8,043 nucleotides of DNA. Origin: a virus (taxonomy: Duplodnaviria; Heunggongvirae; Uroviricota; Caudoviricetes). The stretch is from IMG/VR virus record IMGVR_UViG_2617270947_000017; one strand, written 5' to 3'. Of the stretch, positions 1 to 8,043 are shown one piece after another. Every line of letters starts with the position of its first letter. Position 1 is the first letter of the stretch. A program made the translations under genes and the position numbers. The notes beneath the pieces were generated by a model. The model was not told the origin of the DNA. It searched no databases and saw nothing but the letters and a program-made list of their open reading frames with translations.

Positions 1-1254
1 ATGCCAAAACTCACAGATATGCAGATCCGCGCATGGATAAAGGCGGGAAACAGATTTGATGGCAAGGCAGACGGCAACGGCCTTTATATTTGCTACCCCA
101 AAAACTACACAGTCCCGTTCTGGCGATTCCGCTATAAGCTCGCAGGAAAGCAGCGGGCTATGGTTATAGGCTCTTACTCCGAACTGTCACTATCAAAAGC
201 CAGAGAAACAGCAAAAGAGCTGTCAGCCAGAGTTGCTCTTGGCTATGACGTAGCAGCAGAGAAACAGGAACGAAAAGCTGAAGCACTGGCAAAAATGGAG
301 GCTGAGAAAAACGCCATGCGTGTTTCAGATCTGGCCTCCGAATACTTCGAGCGCCAGATACTTCCGAGATGGAAACATCCCGATATCCTTCGCCGGAGAA
401 TTGATAAGGATATTAACCCCTGCATTGGGCATATGAAGGTAGAGGACGTTAAGCCACGCCACATTGACGACATGTTGAAAGGTATCGTTGACCGAGGAGC
501 ACCAACGATAGCAACAGATGTATTACGCTGGACACGCCGTATCTTTGACTATGGGATAAAACGCCACGCTCTGGAGATAAACCCTTGTTCAGCGTTTGAA
601 GTATCTGATGCTGGTGGTAAAGAGGTTTCCCGCGACCGTTGGCTAACTCGCGATGAGCTTATCAGGCTATTCGAGGCTATGCGCACCGCAAAAGGATTCA
701 GCCGCCAAAACGAACTGACATTTAAACTATTGCTGGCACTATGCGTTCGTAAGATGGAGTTATGCGCCGCACGATGGGAAGAGTTTGATTTAGATGGTGC
801 GGTATGGCATTTGCCGGAAGAACGCAGCAAAAACGGAGACCCTATTGATATACCTCTACCTTCCCCAGCCGTTGAATGGTTGAGAGAGCTACACACCTTT
901 TCATGTAATAGCGCATGGGTGCTTCCGGCCAGGAAGATGCAAAACAGAATGATCCCACATATTCAGGAAAGCACTTTACCCGTAGCACTGGCTAAGGTTC
1001 GCGCCGAAATGCCGGATGTGCCTAATTTCACGATTCACGACTTCCGACGCACCGCACGTACTCATTTAGCAGCATTGGGTGTTGATCCTGTCGTGGCGGA
1101 ACGATGCCTCAATCATCGCATTAAGGGCGTAGAGGGGATTTATAACCGTCATCAGTATTTTGATGAGCGTAAAGCAGCACTGGCACAGTGGGCAGATCTG
1201 CTGGTGGCACTGGAAAGCGGAAAAGACTACAACGTAACGCCAATCAGAGCATGA
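1..1254 (+). CDS. Tyrosine site-specific integrase, P4-type phage integrase family (417 aa, appears complete)
   Basis: C-terminal catalytic region has the box II-like HDFRRTARTHL motif and the tyrosine region GIYNRHQYFDERKAALAQWADLL, which I recall as closely resembling the ...YNRSDYLEQRR...WADL tail of E. coli IntA-type P4 integrases. N-terminus (LTDMQIRAWIKAG...GLYICY...WRFRYK) fits the arm-binding domain of this family. ATG is at window position 1, so upstream context (att/tRNA) is not visible. Confidence 0.9.
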   Translation: MPKLTDMQIRAWIKAGNRFDGKADGNGLYICYPKNYTVPFWRFRYKLAGKQRAMVIGSYSELSLSKARETAKELSARVALGYDVAAEKQERKAEALAKMEAEKNAMRVSDLASEYFERQILPRWKHPDILRRRIDKDINPCIGHMKVEDVKPRHIDDMLKGIVDRGAPTIATDVLRWTRRIFDYGIKRHALEINPCSAFEVSDAGGKEVSRDRWLTRDELIRLFEAMRTAKGFSRQNELTFKLLLALCVRKMELCAARWEEFDLDGAVWHLPEERSKNGDPIDIPLPSPAVEWLRELHTFSCNSAWVLPARKMQNRMIPHIQESTLPVALAKVRAEMPDVPNFTIHDFRRTARTHLAALGVDPVVAERCLNHRIKGVEGIYNRHQYFDERKAALAQWADLLVALESGKDYNVTPIRA

Positions 1255-1272
1255 TGAGAGGAAATATTCATA

Positions 1273-2223
1273 ATGAAATTACCTGCGCATAAATATTATT
1301 CTTTGGATAAAGCAGCCAAACTGGCCGGATGTGAAGTATCCGATTTAATACACTATGCAGCAATTGGGGTTTTAGAAATATGTATAAAAATTCCACCTAT
1401 TGAATTGTTTTACCATTACCCAAAAAATGAAGATGCCGAGCCAGAATTACTTAAAGTTGAAACAGATAGTATTTTTCATATAGATACAAAAGCAGCACAT
1501 GAGAATTATCTCCTTGATCTGAGCAATAAGGCAGATAATCTCGAATCATATGGCTTATCATCACCTGATTATAAAAATAGCGATAACTATATGTATTTTA
1601 TGAGGTTTTCATACAAATCAGAACATTTCTCAGTTATAGAGCGATACAATGTTGGGAAGGATGAAAGAGATATCGAAAGATGGAGCGGTCTATTAGCAAT
1701 TCCGCCTGCGTTCATAGATAACGATGAGCGGGAGCTATCAGAATGGGATGATTGGGAGATCTCTGTATGCGAACTGATGCCTCCGAGATGTGACGAGTTT
1801 AGCAAATCGAATAATTATGAAATCGGAGCTTTTTATATTGACGGCTGGTATGAAATAAGCCGAAACAAAATGTATATAACTGACTATGAATACAATCTTC
1901 TTATAAATGGAGGAAAATATATTTATGACAGACCCATGCACAAACCATCCGCAAACAAGTTATCCAATGATATAAATACGCTAAAAGTTAATAAACGTGC
2001 CGAACGGTACGCAGTCAATAGGGAGAAACTATTAAAATCTGCAATTTATATACTTAGTAAGTATCCAAATGAATGCAGGGGAGAAAGGAAAGAAATAAGC
2101 CCTGAGAAGTGGCGTGACTGTCTTGTTCGTCATTTAGACGAAGTTCCACCACTTATGATAACTAATGAAGATGTAATTCTTAAACATCTACGATCTGCGG
2201 CAAATGGCAAAGTGGATAGTTAA
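1273..2223 (+). CDS. Hypothetical protein, AT-rich horizontally acquired cargo ORF (316 aa); possible N-terminal helix-turn-helix; function unknown
   Basis: Single uninterrupted 316-codon ORF; GAGG-containing RBS about 12 nt upstream of the ATG. GC by hand count on sampled 60-nt lines is about 25-33 percent, against about 45-50 percent in the integrase. Residues about 10-35 (YSLDKAAKLAGCEVSDLIHYAAIGVL) look like an HTH; the rest is rich in Tyr/Asp/Glu/Asn/Lys with no catalytic motif I recognise. Followed by a hairpin terminator. Size and position between int and alpA are reminiscent of yfjH in E. coli K-12 CP4-57 (recalled, not verified). Confidence 0.75.
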   Translation: MKLPAHKYYSLDKAAKLAGCEVSDLIHYAAIGVLEICIKIPPIELFYHYPKNEDAEPELLKVETDSIFHIDTKAAHENYLLDLSNKADNLESYGLSSPDYKNSDNYMYFMRFSYKSEHFSVIERYNVGKDERDIERWSGLLAIPPAFIDNDERELSEWDDWEISVCELMPPRCDEFSKSNNYEIGAFYIDGWYEISRNKMYITDYEYNLLINGGKYIYDRPMHKPSANKLSNDINTLKVNKRAERYAVNREKLLKSAIYILSKYPNECRGERKEISPEKWRDCLVRHLDEVPPLMITNEDVILKHLRSAANGKVDS

Positions 2224-2233
2224 CTTACTATAG

Positions 2234-2260
2234 AGGTACTGCAAAATTACAGTACCTTTT
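2234..2260 (+). terminator. Candidate Rho-independent terminator after the cargo ORF
   Basis: Stem AGGTACTG (2234-2241) pairs with CAGTACCT (2250-2257) around an 8-nt loop CAAAATTA, followed by a TTTT run ending at 2260; starts 11 nt after the cargo stop codon. The T tract is short, so strength is moderate. Confidence 0.5.
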
Positions 2261-2262
2261 CA

Positions 2263-2278
2263 TTGTATATCTATACAG
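2263..2278. promoter_or_regulatory. Palindromic operator-like site in the alpA upstream region (TGTATA-TC-TATACA; resembles an SOS/LexA box)
   Basis: 2264-2277 is a perfect 6+6 inverted repeat with a 2-bp centre. The 16-mer TTGTATATCTATACAG (2263-2278) matches the recalled LexA consensus CTGT-(AT)4-ACAG at 14 of 16 positions, but position 1 is T rather than the conserved C. Lies between the cargo terminator and the alpA start, overlapping weak candidate promoter hexamers (TTTTCA...TAGATT). Confidence 0.3.
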
Positions 2279-2329
2279 CTAGATTTCTCGTAACGAAGCA
2301 ACAACTATCGCTAAGAGGTTACGGGAATC

Positions 2330-2533
2330 ATGAACATCGACACTATCCCTACAAAAGGCTATATCAGACGCTTTCGCCTGGCTGAATTGCTGGGCGTTAG
2401 TGTATCCACCATCGACCGTAAAGTAAGAAACGGTTCACTACCACGTCCGGTAAAGCTGGGAGAAAAAATAACTGCGTTTGATGCGGTTGAGATTCACAAC
2501 TGGCTGGCAGAACGCCGCGGGAAGGTGGCCTGA
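2330..2533 (+). CDS. alpA: AlpA-family phage transcriptional regulator / excisionase-like HTH protein (67 aa)
   Basis: RFRLAELLGVSVSTIDRKVRNGSLPRPVKLGEKITAFDAVEIHNWL matches the AlpA/HTH_17 pattern (HTH, then G.FP.P.KLG, then a tryptophan-containing tail). Typical size and position downstream of a P4-type integrase. Confidence 0.85.
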   Translation: MNIDTIPTKGYIRRFRLAELLGVSVSTIDRKVRNGSLPRPVKLGEKITAFDAVEIHNWLAERRGKVA

Positions 2534-2964
2534 TGGAAAAGAAAAACCGCCCATTACAGGCGGCTAATTCAGATATTCGCGTATCTGATATTACGCCCCT
2601 TACAAAATCACTTCAAGCACCAAAGCGCACACCGAAAAAGCATCGTGCCCGAGTCTATATGCTGCGTACTGGTATAGAGGGATGGACAGAAAATGACATT
2701 CTTCGCTACTGCCGTCTGTCTTCTGGTCGTAACTATGCAACAGAGTTAGAACGCCAGCTTGGAATCACTCTGGAGCGTATCGACGAAAAGAATCCTGATG
2801 GTATCGGAACACACCTTCGCTACCGTTTCTCCTGCCGTGGTGATGTTCTGAAAGTGATCACTCATGTTAACCATCTTGCGAACATAAATGATCACAACGG
2901 ACTTTCTCAGCAGGAAATTGCCGACATTCTGAAACTCTACCCGGACGCGTTTAACGCCGCCTAA
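2533..2964 (+). CDS. Hypothetical protein (143 aa), translationally coupled to alpA
   Basis: ATG overlaps the alpA TGA stop (ATGA at 2531-2535). Basic N-terminus (PKRTPKKHRAR) suggests nucleic-acid binding. No motif I can assign. Confidence 0.65.
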   Translation: MEKKNRPLQAANSDIRVSDITPLTKSLQAPKRTPKKHRARVYMLRTGIEGWTENDILRYCRLSSGRNYATELERQLGITLERIDEKNPDGIGTHLRYRFSCRGDVLKVITHVNHLANINDHNGLSQQEIADILKLYPDAFNAA

Positions 2965-2976
2965 CGGAGACTGAAA

Positions 2977-3810
2977 ATGAACATCGAAAAAAGCAGATTA
3001 ATTTCTGAGGCCGCCCCTCATCTGAACGCCTCTCTGGGCACAATTAACGGTAATGAATTTGCCGCAATTGTCCCGGTTATTCCTGGTCATATCGGTGGGC
3101 GTGAAACCAATATTGTTAGCGCAAAAGCGTTACACAAAGCGTTGGGCGTGGGAAAAGACTTCTCTACATGGATCACTGATCGCATCTCTGAATATGACTT
3201 CACCATTGGGCACGATTACTCAGTCCATAAAACTATTTCCCCAAATTTGGGGAAAAGCCCGAATAGCGCGGCTTACAGCAAGATTAAGCACTCTGGCAGA
3301 CCCGGTAAAGACTATCTGTTAAGTGTCGGAATGGCGAAAGAACTGGCAATGATCGAACGCACCGAACAGGGCCGCGCTATCCGCCGTTATTTCATCCAGT
3401 GCGAGGAAGAATTACAGCGTAGCGTGCCTGAAATCGCCGCCCGCTATCGTCGCCAGCTAAAAGCCCGTATCAGTGCCGCAAACAACTTTAAGCCGATGTG
3501 TGATGCGCTGAATATGGCCCGTGCCGAGCTGGGTAAAACGACGCAGCAGCGCCACTACAGCAACGAGAGCAACATGATCGCCCGTATCGTGCTGGGTGGC
3601 ATGACGGCGAAGCAGTGGGCGCAGGCAAATGGCATTACTGGCGAACCACGGGACAGCATGAACGCAGCACAGCTTGAACACCTCGCCTATCTCGAAAGCA
3701 CCAATATCACGTTAATTGATATGGGCATGGAATATGAGCAGCGCAAAGGAGAACTCACCCGCCTGTCGCAACGCTGGCTCGCCAAGCGTCTGGAGGCGGT
3801 CAATGTCTAA
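2977..3810 (+). CDS. Phage antirepressor-like protein (277 aa; Ant/KilAC-type motif)
   Basis: GGAG RBS 9 nt upstream of the ATG. Central motif DYLLSVGMAKELAMIERTEQGRAIRRYFIQCEEEL is one I recall from phage antirepressor (Ant/KilA-C-type) proteins. Exact domain assignment needs an HMM search. Confidence 0.7.
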   Translation: MNIEKSRLISEAAPHLNASLGTINGNEFAAIVPVIPGHIGGRETNIVSAKALHKALGVGKDFSTWITDRISEYDFTIGHDYSVHKTISPNLGKSPNSAAYSKIKHSGRPGKDYLLSVGMAKELAMIERTEQGRAIRRYFIQCEEELQRSVPEIAARYRRQLKARISAANNFKPMCDALNMARAELGKTTQQRHYSNESNMIARIVLGGMTAKQWAQANGITGEPRDSMNAAQLEHLAYLESTNITLIDMGMEYEQRKGELTRLSQRWLAKRLEAVNV

Positions 3811-3985
3811 GCCAACAGGAACACCACAACCTCAAAAACGCTACAAAGATGCCCACGGAGCACTCGTTACTGTCGAAAGCGTGTCTCACAACCGAGTGAC
3901 GTTTTATCGCGACGGGTATCAATCGCCATGCGTACAACCGCTGGCGCGTTTCATGAAGGAGTTCGCGGAGGTTAACAAATGCTAA
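3803..3985 (+). CDS. Small hypothetical protein (60 aa), coupled to the antirepressor gene; possibly DUF4222-like
   Basis: GGAGG (3792-3796) 6 nt upstream of ATG 3803; the ATG overlaps the antirepressor stop (3808-3810). Sequence MSKPTGTPQPQKRYKDAHGALVTVESVSHNRVTFYRDGYQSPCVQPLARFMKEFAEV. The longer reading from 3716 in the ORF track overlaps the upstream gene and is less likely. Confidence 0.6.
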   Translation: MSKPTGTPQPQKRYKDAHGALVTVESVSHNRVTFYRDGYQSPCVQPLARFMKEFAEVNKC

Positions 3986-5046
3986 CCGTCCAGAAGAACA
4001 CATTTTCACTGGCTGGTATGTCGCCAAAATCCAGCAATATGACAGCAAAGTCAGGTATTAATACAGCAGATACAAGCAAAATTTATCATTTGCTGGTGGT
4101 AGGAGCGGATGCCTTAACTATGTCAGAAATTACGGGCGATGAAGTTAGCGTTGAGAAGGTCAGCGGCTGCGCCAGAGAATTTCTGGTCGTAGATGACTTT
4201 CTCTGCTCGCGTAGTGACTCCACAAAAACCTTCGTCCACACGCGCGACGTTAACGAAATGAGCGCGATGTATTGTGCATCTGGTGCTTCCAATAGTGAGT
4301 TTTCGGAGTCCATAAAAAAGAGCTTGCCGTTATGCGGCAACACGGTTTATGGTTATAAGGCACCTCATAAAACGGGTGCCGGGATTGGCGTCCTGGTAAA
4401 TCGAATGGCGACATATGACGCGCCGAGCGTCTTTTTTTATGTCGTAGGTCTGACTCACCCATTTTTTGGGCGTTGGTGTATAATCCAGCGCCTTTGTCAA
4501 TCAATGGTGGCTCAGGCAGGGGCTTCTTCGGAAGCGCCGGTATCCATTCGAGCCGGTTACGCCAACCCTGTCTGGGCTACCACCAGCGAAATTGGCGTTT
4601 CCGGTGGTAGCGTTACATGCTATCGAATGGAGGCTGCCACATGCTGGCTACTACCCCTACCCAAAAACCGCAATTTATCTGGATTATCGCCGCAGTTCGC
4701 CGCGATTGCCCGACAATTACCGCCAAAATTCATCATATTGCTGCCGAGTCTGAACGCGATGCTCGCCGTTCTCTGGTGCGCGATCACGTCTGCTTTTTTG
4801 CTGGTCGTATCCGCATGGAGGTGGCTCATGATTAAAACCTACGATGTGCATATGGATCCCCTCGAACGCACAAGCCAGATCATCACACTGACAGAAGTGA
4901 TTAACGACATTCTGGTGAGCAACTCTCCCTCACGAGACGAAAGACTGAAGGCGTTACTCGCGATATTGGATCTCGCCGTTCGTGACGTTCATTTCCTGCT
5001 GGAAGGTGGCGAAATGCCAGGAAAAACGGGGGCAACCAATGAATAA
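3979..5046 (+). CDS. Uncertain: long frame-1 ORF (355 codons), probably not one protein; 5-prime part about 3979-4430 looks coding, remainder ambiguous
   Basis: GGAGG (3966-3970) 8 nt upstream of ATG 3979, which overlaps the previous stop. Codon pattern in about 4060-4420 looks coding (G-rich first positions, common codons). The same frame then passes through a hairpin plus T7 (4417-4438) and a TGTATAAT element (4477-4484), and over 4641-4828 is rich in rare codons (CTA, AGG, ATA, CGA, TTA) while frame 3 looks coding. Frames 2 and 3 carry stops at 4313, 4293/4296/4356 and 4445. Confidence 0.3.
4417..4438 (+). terminator. Candidate intrinsic terminator (5-bp GC-rich stem plus T7) inside the long frame-1 ORF
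   Basis: GACGC (4417-4421), loop GCCGA, GCGTC (4427-4431), then TTTTTTT (4432-4438). Orientation fits the + strand only. Confidence 0.4.
4479..4484 (+). promoter_or_regulatory. Candidate -10 hexamer TATAAT (with upstream GTG) for the small-ORF/primase operon
   Basis: Perfect TATAAT at 4479-4484 preceded by GTG; no good -35 at 16-18 bp spacing, which would fit an activator-dependent promoter (possibly AlpA-dependent; inference). About 155 nt upstream of the ORF starting at 4641. Confidence 0.25.
4641..4835 (+). CDS. Small hypothetical protein (64 aa), first of the coupled small-ORF chain
   Basis: GGAGG (4629-4633) 7 nt upstream of ATG 4641. Frame-3 codons are typical enterobacterial (CTG, GCC, CGC, ACC, GAT) whereas the overlapping frame 1 is rare-codon rich. 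Sequence [64 protein letters not shown]. An alternative start at 4617 is possible. Confidence 0.55.
   Translation: MLATTPTQKPQFIWIIAAVRRDCPTITAKIHHIAAESERDARRSLVRDHVCFFAGRIRMEVAHD
4828..5046 (+). CDS. Small hypothetical protein (72 aa), coupled to the upstream ORF
   Basis: GGAGG (4817-4821) 6 nt upstream of ATG 4828; the ATG overlaps the upstream TAA by 8 nt (ATGATTAA). Shares frame and stop with the long frame-1 ORF, so it could instead be the C-terminus of a longer product. Confidence 0.5.
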   Translation: MIKTYDVHMDPLERTSQIITLTEVINDILVSNSPSRDERLKALLAILDLAVRDVHFLLEGGEMPGKTGATNE

Positions 5047-5233
5047 CTCAATTAATACCCCTCGCCTTACGTCCGCACTTCAATTAATCGAGCAAGCAGC
5101 GGCTGTCCTGGTTGCTGTCAGTCTTTCGGCTGAAGAAATGGACGCTGCTGATGTCGTGGATGCGATTAAAGCGTGCTCATCTTTGGTTAACGATGCCCGT
5201 GCCGAGCTGGTAATTCTTGGGGGTGAAAAATGA
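5039..5233 (+). CDS. Small hypothetical protein (64 aa)
   Basis: GGGGG (5028-5032) 6 nt upstream of ATG 5039; overlaps the previous stop by 8 nt. The ORF track's longer start at 4982 would overlap the upstream gene by about 65 nt and lacks an RBS. Sequence [40 protein letters not shown]... Confidence 0.55.
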   Translation: MNNSINTPRLTSALQLIEQAAAVLVAVSLSAEEMDAADVVDAIKACSSLVNDARAELVILGGEK

Positions 5234-5493
5234 ATATCAACTTAATTTATCGTCATCCGTGTGAGCTGGAAATTGAATCATTGCTGGGGCGCGAAGAGCC
5301 ATATCCAGACACATTCACTCCCGCAGATTGCGCGACTGAACGGCTTACCAGAGCGCGCACAGGTCTGGTTCATGTGATGAATGAGATTGTTCCCTCGGTG
5401 GGAGGGGAACAGGCGACAGTAATCAATAGCTGGCTACAAAAAGTTACCTCCCTGATAGATATCGGTTTAATCGATGTGGAGAGTGCGAAATGA
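5230..5493 (+). CDS. Small hypothetical protein (87 aa)
   Basis: ATGA start/stop overlap with the upstream ORF (5230-5233); GGGGG 6-10 nt upstream; coding-like codon usage. Confidence 0.65.
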   Translation: MNINLIYRHPCELEIESLLGREEPYPDTFTPADCATERLTRARTGLVHVMNEIVPSVGGEQATVINSWLQKVTSLIDIGLIDVESAK

Positions 5494-5711
5494 CCAACAT
5501 CCAGCTCATTGAAGCGCAATGTCGCATCGAACAGGTTCAGACTGTTTTAGGGTTCTGGCTTGAAAGGGCCAGCCCCAGCAACAGAGACAAGTTAATGATT
5601 GGCGCGGTTATGTCACTGCTCAATGGCGTACCAGAAGCTATTCAGGAAGCGGACGAATTGTTGGGCAAATATGAGTTACAGAATCATTCAGGCGAGGCGA
5701 AACATGAATAA
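5490..5711 (+). CDS. Small hypothetical protein (73 aa)
   Basis: ATGA overlap with the upstream ORF (5490-5493); GGAGAG upstream. Confidence 0.65.
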   Translation: MTNIQLIEAQCRIEQVQTVLGFWLERASPSNRDKLMIGAVMSLLNGVPEAIQEADELLGKYELQNHSGEAKHE

Positions 5712-6306
5712 TTTCTTAACTTTCCATGCAGAAGCAACGCCTGACGGCGTAAACATCATGCACCGCAGCAACGATGGCATGACAGAACGCGTTGAGACCG
5801 TCTCATATATTGATGCCGTAAATCGTCTGGATGCCGGGGATTATGACGATAAACCAGATGAAGGCATGTTTATACATCTCGCTATTGCCAGTGGCGGCAA
5901 CCAGGGATATTTCGATTACACATCACAGCATCACGTGATTATGTGGCGCTGGCTGATAGCAACAGCATTCATCAATGAAATGAGAAAGGAAAACGGCACC
6001 GTCAGCATTATTGATGACAGTGGCAATCATTCCGTGGTTTCTGTTTATTCCAATGGCATCGTCGCCATGCCGCTGTATCCAGTAGCAGAGCGCCTCGCTA
6101 TGGCAAACAACATTGAGGGCGCAATGATCGAGAAATATGGTGTTGATGTCGGAACAAAGAATGCCATCATTTTTTACAGCAACATGTTCGATGTCGAACA
6201 GGGAACACTCACTTCGTTTGGGCGAGAAGTGCTTGCCGATCTTCACAACAGCTTTATTGCCGAACTAAACGAAAACGGCATCCCAGAAGCACCAGTGACG
6301 CACTAA
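5704..6306 (+). CDS. Hypothetical protein (200 aa) immediately upstream of the primase
   Basis: GAGG (5693-5696) 7 nt upstream of ATG 5704; 8-nt overlap with the upstream stop. The ORF track's start at 5599 would overlap the previous gene by more than 100 nt. Stop at 6304-6306 is 12 nt before the primase start. Confidence 0.7.
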   Translation: MNNFLTFHAEATPDGVNIMHRSNDGMTERVETVSYIDAVNRLDAGDYDDKPDEGMFIHLAIASGGNQGYFDYTSQHHVIMWRWLIATAFINEMRKENGTVSIIDDSGNHSVVSVYSNGIVAMPLYPVAERLAMANNIEGAMIEKYGVDVGTKNAIIFYSNMFDVEQGTLTSFGREVLADLHNSFIAELNENGIPEAPVTH

Positions 6307-6318
6307 ACGGGGGCCAGA

Positions 6319-6882
6319 ATGCGAAACATTGATCTTATCCGTCAGGTTATCAGTGCGTCTGAAAACAACTGGCCTCATGTGCTGGGCTGCCTGAACATAA
6401 ATGTCCCTGACTCTCCGCGCCGTCATGCTCCCTGCCCTGCATGTGGGGGTAAAGATCGATTCCGGTTCGATGACAACGGGCGCGGTAGCTTCATCTGTAA
6501 TCAGTGCGGCGCTGGTGATGGGCTGGATTTAATTAAACGCGTAAATAACTGCGACACAACAGAGGCGGCGCTTCTTGCCGCTGATGTTCTGGGTATTGAT
6601 TACCGGACAACGGAAACACCAGAAGCCACCAGCCAGAAACGGGAACAACTGGAAACCGAGCGCCAGCGACGCGAACAGGAGCGCCTGAAAAGGGCAGAGA
6701 AGGACGAACAACAAAGACGGGCTACGTTTTCCCGTCAGTTTGATGACATGCGCAGAAAGGCCGTAAATGGCAAATCTGATTATCTGGTTGCGAAAGGGGT
6801 AGGTGATTTTACATTCCCCGTGTTGCCAGATGGATCTCTGTTGCTGGCGCTGGTGAACCGCCCCGGGAATCCTGGAGACTAA
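6319..6882 (+). pseudogene. Primase N-terminal fragment (P4 alpha-like zinc ribbon plus start of TOPRIM), interrupted by an IS element at about 6853/6854
   Basis: CPACGGKDRFRFDDNGRGSFICNQCG is a CxxC...CxxC primase zinc-ribbon motif; SDYLVAKGV...[15 protein letters not shown] resembles the start of a TOPRIM domain. The reading frame runs into the IS terminal repeat, so the last codons (NRPGNPGD-stop) come from IS sequence. Primases of this type are normally several hundred residues longer. Confidence 0.7.
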
Positions 6883-6907
6883 ACTCCCTGAGAAAGAGGT
6901 AAACAGG

Positions 6908-7234
6908 ATGACTAAAAATACACGTTTTTCCCCCGAGGTCCGTCAACGGGCAGTTCGTATGGTTCTGGAAAGTCAGGGCGAATATGACTCACAATGGGCG
7001 GCAATTTGTTCCATTGCCCCAAAGATTGGCTGTACGCCAGAGACTCTGCGTGTGTGGGTTCGTCAGCATGAGCGGGATACCGGGAGTGGTGATGGTGGAT
7101 TCACCACCGCTGAACGTCAGCGTCTGAAAGAGCTGGAACGTGAAAATCGTGAACTGCGCCGCAGTAACGATATCCTTCGCCAGGCTTCCGCTTATTTTGC
7201 GAAGGCGGAGTTCGACCGCCTCTGGAAAAAATAA
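6908..7234 (+). CDS. IS3-family transposase OrfA (HTH/leucine-zipper subunit), IS629-like (108 aa)
   Basis: [57 protein letters not shown]... matches my recollection of IS629/IS1203 OrfA almost residue for residue; ends [36 protein letters not shown]. Confidence 0.9.
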
Positions 7235-8043
7235 TGCCACTGCTGGATAAGCTGCGTGAGCAGTACGGGGTCGGACCGGTATGCAGTGAACTGCATATTG
7301 CCCCGTCAACGTATTACCACTGTCAGCAACAGCGACATCATCCTGATAAACGCAGTGCCCGTGCGCAGCGCGATGACTGGCTGAAGAGAGAGATACAGCG
7401 CGTATACGATGAAAATCATCAGGTGTACGGTGTGCGTAAAGTCTGGCGCCAGTTGTTACGCGAAGGTATCAGGGTGGCCAGATGTACAGTGGCGCGCCTC
7501 ATGGCGGTTATGGGACTTGCCGGTGTTCTCCGGGGTAAAAAGGTCCGTACTACCGTCAGCCGGAAAGCCGTTTCCGCAGGCGACCGCGTAAACCGTCAGT
7601 TCGTGGCAGAACGACCTGACCAGCTGTGGGTGGCTGATTTTACTTACGTCAGCACATGGCGGGGCTTCGTCTATGTGGCGTTCATCATTGATGTGTTTGC
7701 CGGATACATTGTGGGGTGGCGGGTCTCATCGTCCATGGAGACGACATTCGTGCTGGATGCACTGGAGCAGGCGTTATGGGCCCGTCGACCGTCCGGCACG
7801 GTCCATCACAGTGATAAAGGTTCTCAGTATGTATCGCTGGCCTACACACAGCGGCTTAAGGAAGCCGGATTACTGGCATCAACAGGAAGTACAGGCGACT
7901 CGTATGACAACGCGATGGCGGAGAGCATCAATGGTCTTTACAAAGCTGAGGTAATACACCGTAAGAGCTGGAAAAACCGTGCAGAAGTGGAACTGGCCAC
8001 ACTCACGTGGGTGGACTGGTATAACAATCGACGATTGCTGGAA
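7234..8043 (+). CDS. IS3-family transposase OrfB (DDE/rve catalytic subunit), IS629-like; partial, runs off the window end
   Basis: Frame-1 reading from ATG 7234 (overlapping the orfA TAA) is open to the window end (270 codons). Hand translation gives [21 protein letters not shown]...DQLWVADFTYVSTWRGFVYVAFIIDVFAGYIVGW...HSDKGSQYVSLAYTQRLKEAGLLASTGSTGDSYDNAMAESINGLYKAEVIH..., with the DDE-integrase hallmarks. Not in the ORF track because no stop lies within the window. Confidence 0.9.
   Translation, partial: MPLLDKLREQYGVGPVCSELHIAPSTYYHCQQQRHHPDKRSARAQRDDWLKREIQRVYDENHQVYGVRKVWRQLLREGIRVARCTVARLMAVMGLAGVLRGKKVRTTVSRKAVSAGDRVNRQFVAERPDQLWVADFTYVSTWRGFVYVAFIIDVFAGYIVGWRVSSSMETTFVLDALEQALWARRPSGTVHHSDKGSQYVSLAYTQRLKEAGLLASTGSTGDSYDNAMAESINGLYKAEVIHRKSWKNRAEVELATLTWVDWYNNRRLLE

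Follow-up and report, generated by a model that had tools for sequence, protein, structure and literature searches.

Truncation of the primase-helicase gene of an EcCIMP1-like PICI by an IS629/IS1203-type element in Escherichia coli 1-110-08_S3_C1

Background

EcCIMP1, a PICI of Escherichia coli MP1 (Pick, Stadel & Raivio, ISME J 2025; PMC11773190; CP139039), is the one island of its type for which mobilisation by a helper phage has been demonstrated. Its excision, circularisation, and transduction by Kapi1, a P22-like phage, depend on int and on the int-proximal alpA gene (PMC11773190). AlpA is the master activator in Gram-negative PICIs, a role that has been shown for EcCIMP1 and for EcCICFT073 (PMC11773190, PMC6092414). 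The replication genes of these islands have been studied in EcCICFT073, where the pri-rep gene drives the replication of a plasmid; the origin of Gram-negative PICIs lies immediately 3' of pri-rep and consists of two sets of iterons around an AT-rich spacer (PMC6092414). Deletion of pri-rep lowers the transfer of EcCICFT073 by 3-4 logs, from about 1-3.6 × 10^5 to 37-87 per ml, without abolishing it, while deletion of int or alpA brings it to <1 (PMC6092414). The mutations made in the EcCIMP1 study were in int and alpA only (PMC11773190). IS629 has a documented preference for prophage-like DNA, in which 62% of its copies in O157 genomes lie (PMC3271280).

Here we describe a locus at which these two kinds of element meet. 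The window, that is, the whole stretch of 8,043 nt that was analysed, begins with the integrase gene of a PICI and ends inside an insertion sequence. With high though not complete confidence, we infer that it represents an EcCIMP1-like PICI whose primase-helicase gene was cut by an IS629/IS1203-type element, with the probable loss of autonomous replication. All features below are given on the plus strand of the window.

Results and discussion

An EcCIMP1-like island beside yicC

The closest relative of the island occupies the same yicC site in NZ_OZ040950. It is 99.7% identical over positions 1-6853 of the window (100% over the first 5.86 kb) and carries an uninterrupted primase-helicase gene encoding 783 aa. 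The left end of the island is formed by an intact integrase gene (1-1254, 417 aa; Pfam Arm-DNA-bind_3, Phage_int_M, and Phage_integrase) that is identical to its counterpart in this relative. The int ATG is located 189 bp from the last base of yicC (188 bp between them), and the flank reads dut-slmA-pyrE-rph-yicC. Downstream of int follow a low-GC ORF of 316 aa, alpA, a 143-aa ORF, AntA, DUF4222, the "ash" region, four small ORFs, and the primase, with all of the major ORFs on the plus strand. The AlpA-family regulator or excisionase (2330-2533, 67 aa; Pfam Phage_AlpA) is intact. The PICI middle module (2977-6306), recognized with Pfam, PHROGs, and Rfam and by its nucleotide identity to EcCIMP1, comprises the AntA antirepressor, DUF4222, the "ash" region with isrK and C4 RNAs, and the four small ORFs. 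The int-proximal 316-aa ORF had no match in PADLOC, Pfam, or PHROGs.

EcCIMP1 shares this gene order (int, alpA, 143-aa ORF, AntA, DUF4222, ash/Icd region, four small ORFs, and primase), with 93.4% nucleotide identity over positions 2523-6304 of the window (3.8 kb) and a primase N-terminus that is identical at 178 of 179 residues. The two islands differ in their integrases and integration sites, which are yicC here and tRNA-Thr (thrW) in EcCIMP1. The present island has the additional low-GC 316-aa ORF between int and alpA, and EcCIMP1 two further small ORFs ahead of the primase. The EcCIMP1 primase is intact (918 aa, TOPRIM and DUF927), whereas that of the present island is cut at codon 179. 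Judged by gene order, site, and nucleotide identity, the island portion of the window corresponds to the left 6.85 kb of a PICI of the EcCIMP1 type that is integrated beside yicC in E. coli 1-110-08_S3_C1. The preliminary description had taken the island for a satellite whose integrase-proximal cargo is intact; a phage satellite-type element with an intact int/alpA end is supported here.

No phage structural or lysis genes were detected with Pfam and PHROGs in the 6.85 kb seen; the distal part of the island lies beyond the contig end. In relatives, the distal part carries P22-type ejection-protein genes, and the distal island proteins of the closest relative occur on 374 to >1000 contigs. P4-like satellites resemble the island only in int, alpA, an alpha-type primase, and a C4/CI-type RNA. 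Classification as a strict P4-like satellite was rejected, as none of the ORFs in the window has homology to psu, delta, or sid in Pfam or PHROGs.

Truncation of the primase-helicase gene

The primase ORF (6319-6882), read directly and present in the program-made ORF list, extends from an ATG at 6319 through 187 codons to a TAA at 6880-6882. To locate the end of its native part, we aligned it with two uninterrupted orthologues, one of 783 aa from NZ_OZ040950 (L005:20319-22670) and one of 918 aa from strain AMSCJX02 (L001:9120-11876). Frame and sequence agree with both through the GTG of codon 179 (6853-6855), and the collinear remnant, native codons 1-179, thus occupies positions 6319-6855. 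Past this codon, both orthologues run on with DKSGAVTAAQ..., while the window reads NRPGNPGD and a stop; by alignment and translation, these eight codons and the TAA (6856-6882) are an ORF tail encoded by the insertion sequence. The gene therefore does not end here naturally in its relatives. About 178 intact codons had initially been counted. The frame is indeed intact up to the insertion sequence, and the native part has 179 codons because the T and G at 6854-6855, which are common to the target and the insertion sequence, fit both alike.

The remnant retains a primase zinc ribbon of the CxxC...CxxC type (aa 34-69, 6418-6525; Pfam PF08273 Zn_Ribbon_Prim, E = 4e-16), which is the sole Pfam domain of the 187-aa product. 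Besides this domain, a highly charged linker (approximately aa 100-147) and about 30 further native residues are left. Both intact proteins share the zinc ribbon at residues 34-69 and a Toprim_3 domain at residues 221-322 (Pfam), and the conserved TOPRIM motifs, IAEG (approximately aa 222-226) and DNDH (approximately aa 275-278), are all located downstream of the break. Since the break is at codon 179 and Toprim_3 begins at aa 221, the whole of TOPRIM is lost. The proposal that the zinc ribbon and the beginning of TOPRIM remain is thus correct for the former and mistaken for the latter, and Pfam detects no TOPRIM in the 187-aa product. The helicase-type half of the intact proteins exists in two alternative forms, DUF5906 (residues 515-614 of the 783-aa protein) or DUF927 (residues 365-643 of the 918-aa protein). 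In the DUF5906 form, a GTGKGT motif lies in the helicase part (aa 475-654), which matches the "Primase" chains of PDB 6k9c/6k9e, and PHROGs places the primase family with "DNA primase" families. A P-loop helicase domain is absent from the window. Because the 187-aa product lacks TOPRIM, the window contains only a fragment of a zinc-ribbon/TOPRIM/SF3-helicase primase-helicase rather than a functional member of the family.

Iterons are present 3' of the intact genes, and they differ with the C-terminal variant. The DUF5906-type gene of NZ_OZ040950 is followed by ACCTRTACCA in 2+3 copies around an AT-rich spacer, and the DUF927-type gene of AMSCJX02 by three copies of GTTGGTTCA facing three copies of TTGAACCAAC. 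A pattern search of the window found iterons of neither type. The intact orthologue resembles EcCICFT073 Pri-Rep and the alpha protein of phage P4 in its layout, in which a zinc ribbon at the N-terminus is combined with a TOPRIM primase and an SF3-type helicase and followed by a 3' iteron origin. The present family occurs with two alternative C-terminal halves, each with its own iterons, and only the first 179 residues are present in the window.

The remnant carries no other inactivating change. It has five private substitutions, of which four are synonymous, and these show it to be a distinct allele. Pseudogene decay was considered as a source of the excess substitutions and rejected, given that only one of the five is non-synonymous. 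The 23 differences from the NZ_OZ040950 island all fall within a single block (5865-6828), a clustering that points to a putative recombination patch.

The inserted element

The sequence that follows the remnant (6854-8043) is, by nucleotide identity, the left 1190 of approximately 1310 bp of an IS629/IS1203-type element of the IS3 family, in the same orientation as the primase. Its TG-initiated terminal repeat starts with TGAACCGCCCCGGG at 6854, as previously described. The complete left terminal inverted repeat, TGAACCGCCCCGGGAATCCTGGAGAC (6854-6879), is the reverse complement, bar 2-3 positions, of the right end of the best-matching E. coli copy (L006), and the right end expected for the element reads ...CAGGAAACCCGGGGCGGTTCA. 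The same first 14 bases are found at the left end of 11 other copies, as well as at the primase-adjoining end of the element in L020, a related truncated allele discussed below. The window includes an intact orfA (6908-7234, 108 aa; Pfam HTH_Tnp_1, translation) and the orfB frame for a DDE integrase-type transposase (7168-8043; Pfam rve, HTH_21, and rve_3), which has no stop and whose C-terminus lies beyond the window. A full-length ALIL pseudoknot was also identified (7189-7305; Rfam RF01497, 120.9 bits); in IS3411/IS629-type elements, this structure stimulates the -1 frameshift by which orfA and orfB are joined.

The 1190 bases match thousands of E. coli copies at 95% to 99% identity. The best copy (99.0%; 1310 bp with a 3-bp duplication) differs at 12 positions and is labelled in RefSeq only as "IS3 family transposase"; identity is 95.3% to a copy annotated in RefSeq as IS1203 and 95.8% to a copy annotated as IS629-family. 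The earlier label "IS629-like" is a fair one, because published IS629 subtypes differ by 4-5% (PMC3271280), although the present copy is neither of the canonical isoforms, IS629 or IS1203. With the IS629/IS1203/IS3411 group it shares the TGAACCGCCCCGGG repeat, orfA and orfB with the ALIL frameshift, 1310-bp copies, 3-bp duplications, and 95-96% identity; the resemblance on which membership in this isoform group of the IS3 family is assigned is judged to be far beyond chance. Related sequence was detected in 4242 of the 5426 complete E. coli genomes, and the exact orfA protein in 77 blocks of a public collection, with no contig of the present strain among those listed. Full copies of the subtype are 1310 bp long, and six of eight distinct insertions inspected have a 3-bp duplication (none in the other two).

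Reality and rarity of the junction

The junction between primase and insertion sequence is present in NCBI contig JHDM01000077.1 (GCA_000601175.1), to which the window is identical throughout and which stops 1 nt past it, inside the element; the sister contigs likewise end in the element. Contig ends of this kind are typical of repeat-limited draft assemblies and are what a chimera of an island contig and a repeated insertion sequence could look like. We consider such a chimera very remote, since the junction recurs in an independent Logan assembly, that of SRR1186483, on a contig, common to three samples, that ends 28 nt inside the element, and the exact 187-aa product is found on three NCBI contigs of the clone (the names listed are E. 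coli 1-110-08_S3_C1 and _C3). The NCBI contig also extends 1190 nt into a copy that differs at 12 positions from the closest known one. A practically negligible probability attaches to the reading that the gene is naturally this short, or that the mobile island naturally ends here, with the insertion sequence merely adjoining it. Nothing speaks for it except the presence of a stop-terminated 187-aa ORF that is annotated as a protein, under the GenBank label "zinc-binding domain of primase-helicase family protein". Its last eight codons and stop are insertion sequence, and the near-identical NZ_OZ040950 island continues for 604 codons more. A 400-nt probe over the break (gene nt 337-736) recovered 465 complete-genome records, of which 462 are uninterrupted and three broken, and full-length genes of the two variants (>=80% coverage) were found in 119 and 363 records. 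The orthologue alignments, the continuation in NZ_OZ040950, and the 462 uninterrupted copies refute a naturally short gene. The primase-helicase gene is genuinely disrupted by an IS629-type element after codon 179, as the preliminary description had proposed; such an event is nothing unusual, and this one is restricted to a single clone.

None of 5426 complete E. coli genomes contains the junction. Exact-pattern scans of GTDB species genomes and JGI metagenomes had no match to the left or the predicted right junction, a negative that is uninformative because the left junction is missing from those collections as well. Truncation of the PICI primase gene by insertion sequences recurs and is rare in complete genomes. 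The view that such an insertion is a "common route to domestication" does not hold against the proportion of uninterrupted copies. The insertion looks recent and private to one clone, because the remnant is otherwise free of inactivating changes and the event is restricted to that clone.

The far side of the element

Two arrangements of the DNA behind the insertion sequence were weighed. If the remainder of the primase gene follows directly, as in a simple insertion, the derived right junction would read ...CCCGGGGCGGTTCA-TGG-TGGATAAATCCGGCGCAG..., that is, TGG followed by TGGATAAATCCGGCGCAGTCAC..., and we hold this arrangement to be possible at somewhat under even chances. Alternatively, the element may mark the end of a deletion or rearrangement that removed or displaced the remaining primase sequence and the origin, and perhaps also the packaging/ejection module of the distal part, so that the island is a stump; to this arrangement we give a modestly better than even probability. 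All three of the resolved related alleles that are truncated by an insertion sequence (two of which possibly go back to one event) lack the primase behind the element. In the L020 lineage, the element stands after gene nt 490, and the right flank picks up again approximately 6.0 kb further on in EcCIMP1, immediately before a P22 gp16-like gene, with about 6 kb missing; this 163-aa allele is listed in 277 collection blocks. In UTME-6, a truncated autotransporter gene and then hemB lie behind an IS1203 inserted after nt 603, and in O111:NM 14614, IS1203 in the opposite orientation after approximately nt 600 is followed by a cytosine methyltransferase gene. Base rates also speak for a deletion end, given that only 21 of 47 IS629 copies in O157 genomes retained a target duplication (PMC3271280) and that two of the eight inspected copies of the subtype are without one. 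However, the other six of these eight are simple insertions with a 3-bp duplication, and the comparison cases, all taken from IS-rich STEC genomes, were detected via N-terminal fragments, which biases them toward deletions. Searches for the C-terminal fragments that a TGG duplication would be predicted to generate in both variants (MVDKSG... and MDKSG...) in a collection of 15 billion proteins found none, a result of little weight given the private substitutions of the allele; a search with the C-terminal 604 aa returned cluster representatives only, behind which strain-specific fragments are hidden.

The three other truncated alleles concern the same gene and the same group of insertion sequences, with cuts 16 codons upstream (L020) or about 21-22 codons downstream (UTME-6 and 14614) of the one described here. 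Their positions and orientations differ from those in the window, which makes them independent of the insertion there, and UTME-6 and 14614 may represent one event that was later inverted. Their far side is known to be the end of a deletion or rearrangement, unlike that of the window, where the contig ends inside the element. Elements of the IS629 group have thus cut the PICI primase on at least three or four separate occasions, all inside a 114-bp stretch (following gene nt 490, 535, approximately 600, and 603). In each of these alleles, the zinc-ribbon N-terminus and the whole int-alpA-regulatory module are intact. It is conceivable, but in our estimation quite doubtful, that the repeated cuts are non-random and reflect either a hot spot of insertion or selection in favour of islands that shed costly replication while retaining their regulatory, immunity, or cargo functions; a free zinc-ribbon fragment might in that case also hinder the replication of a helper or rival island. 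A hot spot is not claimed, as the truncated alleles were found with N-terminal probes and their ascertainment is biased.

Consequences for replication and transfer

In the reading favoured here, an IS629/IS1203-type element has landed between codons 179 and 180 of the island primase-helicase, and the remnant is no longer joined to the catalytic TOPRIM domain, to the SF3-type helicase domain, or to the C-terminal region. Going by the intact relatives, the iteron origin would be at best 1.3 kb away, behind the element. After induction by a helper phage, the island can probably still excise, an expectation based on int and alpA being identical to those of an intact relative. It would not replicate on its own, and its packaging and transfer would be predicted to fall by orders of magnitude, but not to zero. 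Autonomous replication is very probably lost, which is a sound deduction because TOPRIM and helicase are missing and the iteron origin of relatives lies beyond the position of the insertion. The expectation in the preliminary description that the island is probably replication-defective is therefore a reasonable one, with both TOPRIM and helicase gone. Its further proposal that the insertion immobilises the satellite is too strong, since int and alpA are intact and the pri-rep deletion of EcCICFT073 leaves residual transfer (PMC6092414), and strongly reduced rather than necessarily abolished transfer would be predicted.

That the gene is broken and the island nonetheless mobile, through replication provided in trans by a second island or the helper, a restarted C-terminal TOPRIM-helicase fragment, or sufficient residual replication-independent packaging, is in our view unlikely. 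Residual packaging has a precedent in EcCICFT073, which without pri-rep is still transferred at a level above that seen when int or alpA is deleted (PMC6092414). Two to three copies of the primase N-terminus are present in some E. coli genomes, which is compatible with complementation; no second primase copy is known in this strain, however, and the pairing of the two C-terminal variants with different iterons suggests an origin specificity that would limit cross-complementation. A restart is conceivable if the target duplication is TGG, since the derived right junction would then read ...GGTTCA TGG TGGAT..., with an in-frame ATG directly before the GTG of codon 179. The T7 primase-helicase form gp4B, without the zinc ribbon, has lost template-directed priming, and a C-terminal fragment of the present protein without its zinc ribbon would be expected to do the same.

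Conclusions

The disrupted gene has direct implications for annotation, outside of which its significance is small. The 187-aa product should be annotated as a pseudogene fragment, and the appropriate entry for the island is that of an EcCIMP1-like PICI deficient in replication. The locus also adds one more case of IS629-type elements eroding prophage-like DNA. For the biology of the family, the clone provides a natural primase-null allele in a group of PICIs whose primase has had no prior genetic tests, and the intact island of NZ_OZ040950 would be a ready-made control for the truncated one.

IS elements in the primase gene

Elements of the IS629/IS1203 group interrupt the primase gene in several islands. 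In addition to the insertion at position 6854 of the window, such elements are present in the lineage of a 163-aa truncated allele (L020:5490-6799) and in the truncated alleles of UTME-6 and O111:NM 14614 (L002:9168-10477 and L022:~6210-7520). The cuts follow nt 490, 535 (window), about 600, and 603 of the gene; the elements lie in either orientation, and the host islands occupy differing sites. The primase gene is possibly an insertion hot spot for this group, with the caveat of ascertainment bias, because the cut alleles were found with N-terminal probes. UTME-6 and O111:NM 14614 have island alleles in common, and their cuts may represent a single event that was inverted afterwards.

Other copies of the IS subtype in the window are found in ENA assembly ERZ28757217 (L010:5462-7441 and L011:4783-9329): one interrupts a SEC-C/UPF0149 gene and another a lambda-type tape-measure gene, and both have 3-bp duplications. 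A third copy (L012) lies in a Rac-like prophage, with the RecT gene on one side and the exonuclease VIII gene on the other. The split genes with their duplications and the Rac-like prophage copy show that this subtype is active now or has been recently, and that prophage DNA is a frequent target.

Primase variants and the interrupted allele

The DUF927 and DUF5906 variants of the primase have the N-terminal ~835 nt in common, at about 93% identity. The DUF927 half in strain AMSCJX02 is followed by the iterons GTTGGTTCA/TTGAACCAAC (L001:11902-12014) and the DUF5906 half in the NZ_OZ040950 island by ACCTRTACCA (L005:22700-22803), each set consisting of two blocks with a spacer between them. The association of different iterons with each C-terminal half, downstream of a common N-terminal region, suggests that the origin-recognition half of the primase is swapped as a module together with its own origin.

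Bases 1-5864 of the window are 100% identical to the NZ_OZ040950 island, and all 23 differences between the two fall within 5865-6828 (compared with L005:19865-20828), 16 of them concentrated in 5865-5986. With this distribution, the block resembles a patch acquired by recombination from a different island lineage, and it extends as far as the IS junction. The C-terminal half of the primase, whether lost or simply not in view, is therefore not necessarily of the DUF5906 type found in the closest relative.

The right IS junction lies outside the window and was predicted from window positions 6851-6855 and a full-length copy of the subtype (L006:1697-1710). If the element made its usual 3-bp duplication (TGG), the junction would read ...GGTTCA-TGG-TGGAT..., creating an ATG in frame immediately before codon 179. 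Such a start, if real, could permit translation of a TOPRIM-helicase fragment without the zinc ribbon.

Distal and int-proximal genes, and a possible immunity RNA locus

Intact relatives of the island carry gp16-like, "DNA transfer protein", and DUF2824 genes downstream of the primase (L001:12638-16092, L005:27125-30696, and L008:12598-17766, the last on the minus strand). These P22-type DNA ejection/injection genes are unusual satellite cargo, for which the authors of the EcCIMP1 study suspect a role in packaging (PMC11773190).

Between int and alpA, a 316-aa ORF (1273-2223, plus strand) has a GC content of 35-37%, compared with about 48-50% in its surroundings, and has no match in Pfam, PHROG, or PADLOC. 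EcCIMP1 has no gene in this position, and UTME-6 has a DUF6387 protein there. The interval looks like a slot for variable cargo, and the ORF may be a defence or accessory gene that has gone unrecognised.

Rfam identified two plus-strand RNAs within a 355-aa "ash family" ORF (3979-5046): one is a full-length isrK Hfq-binding RNA (67 bits, 4360-4437), the other a C4 antisense RNA (79.5 bits, 4500-4587). Both lie entirely within the stretch of the ORF that matches Pfam Phage_ASH (aa 124-232, nt 4348-4674) and PHROG "repressor" families. The "ash protein" annotation may largely reflect a translated conserved immunity RNA locus of the P1/P4 type. If so, the primase would belong to an RNA-controlled operon, as does the primase of satellite phage P4.
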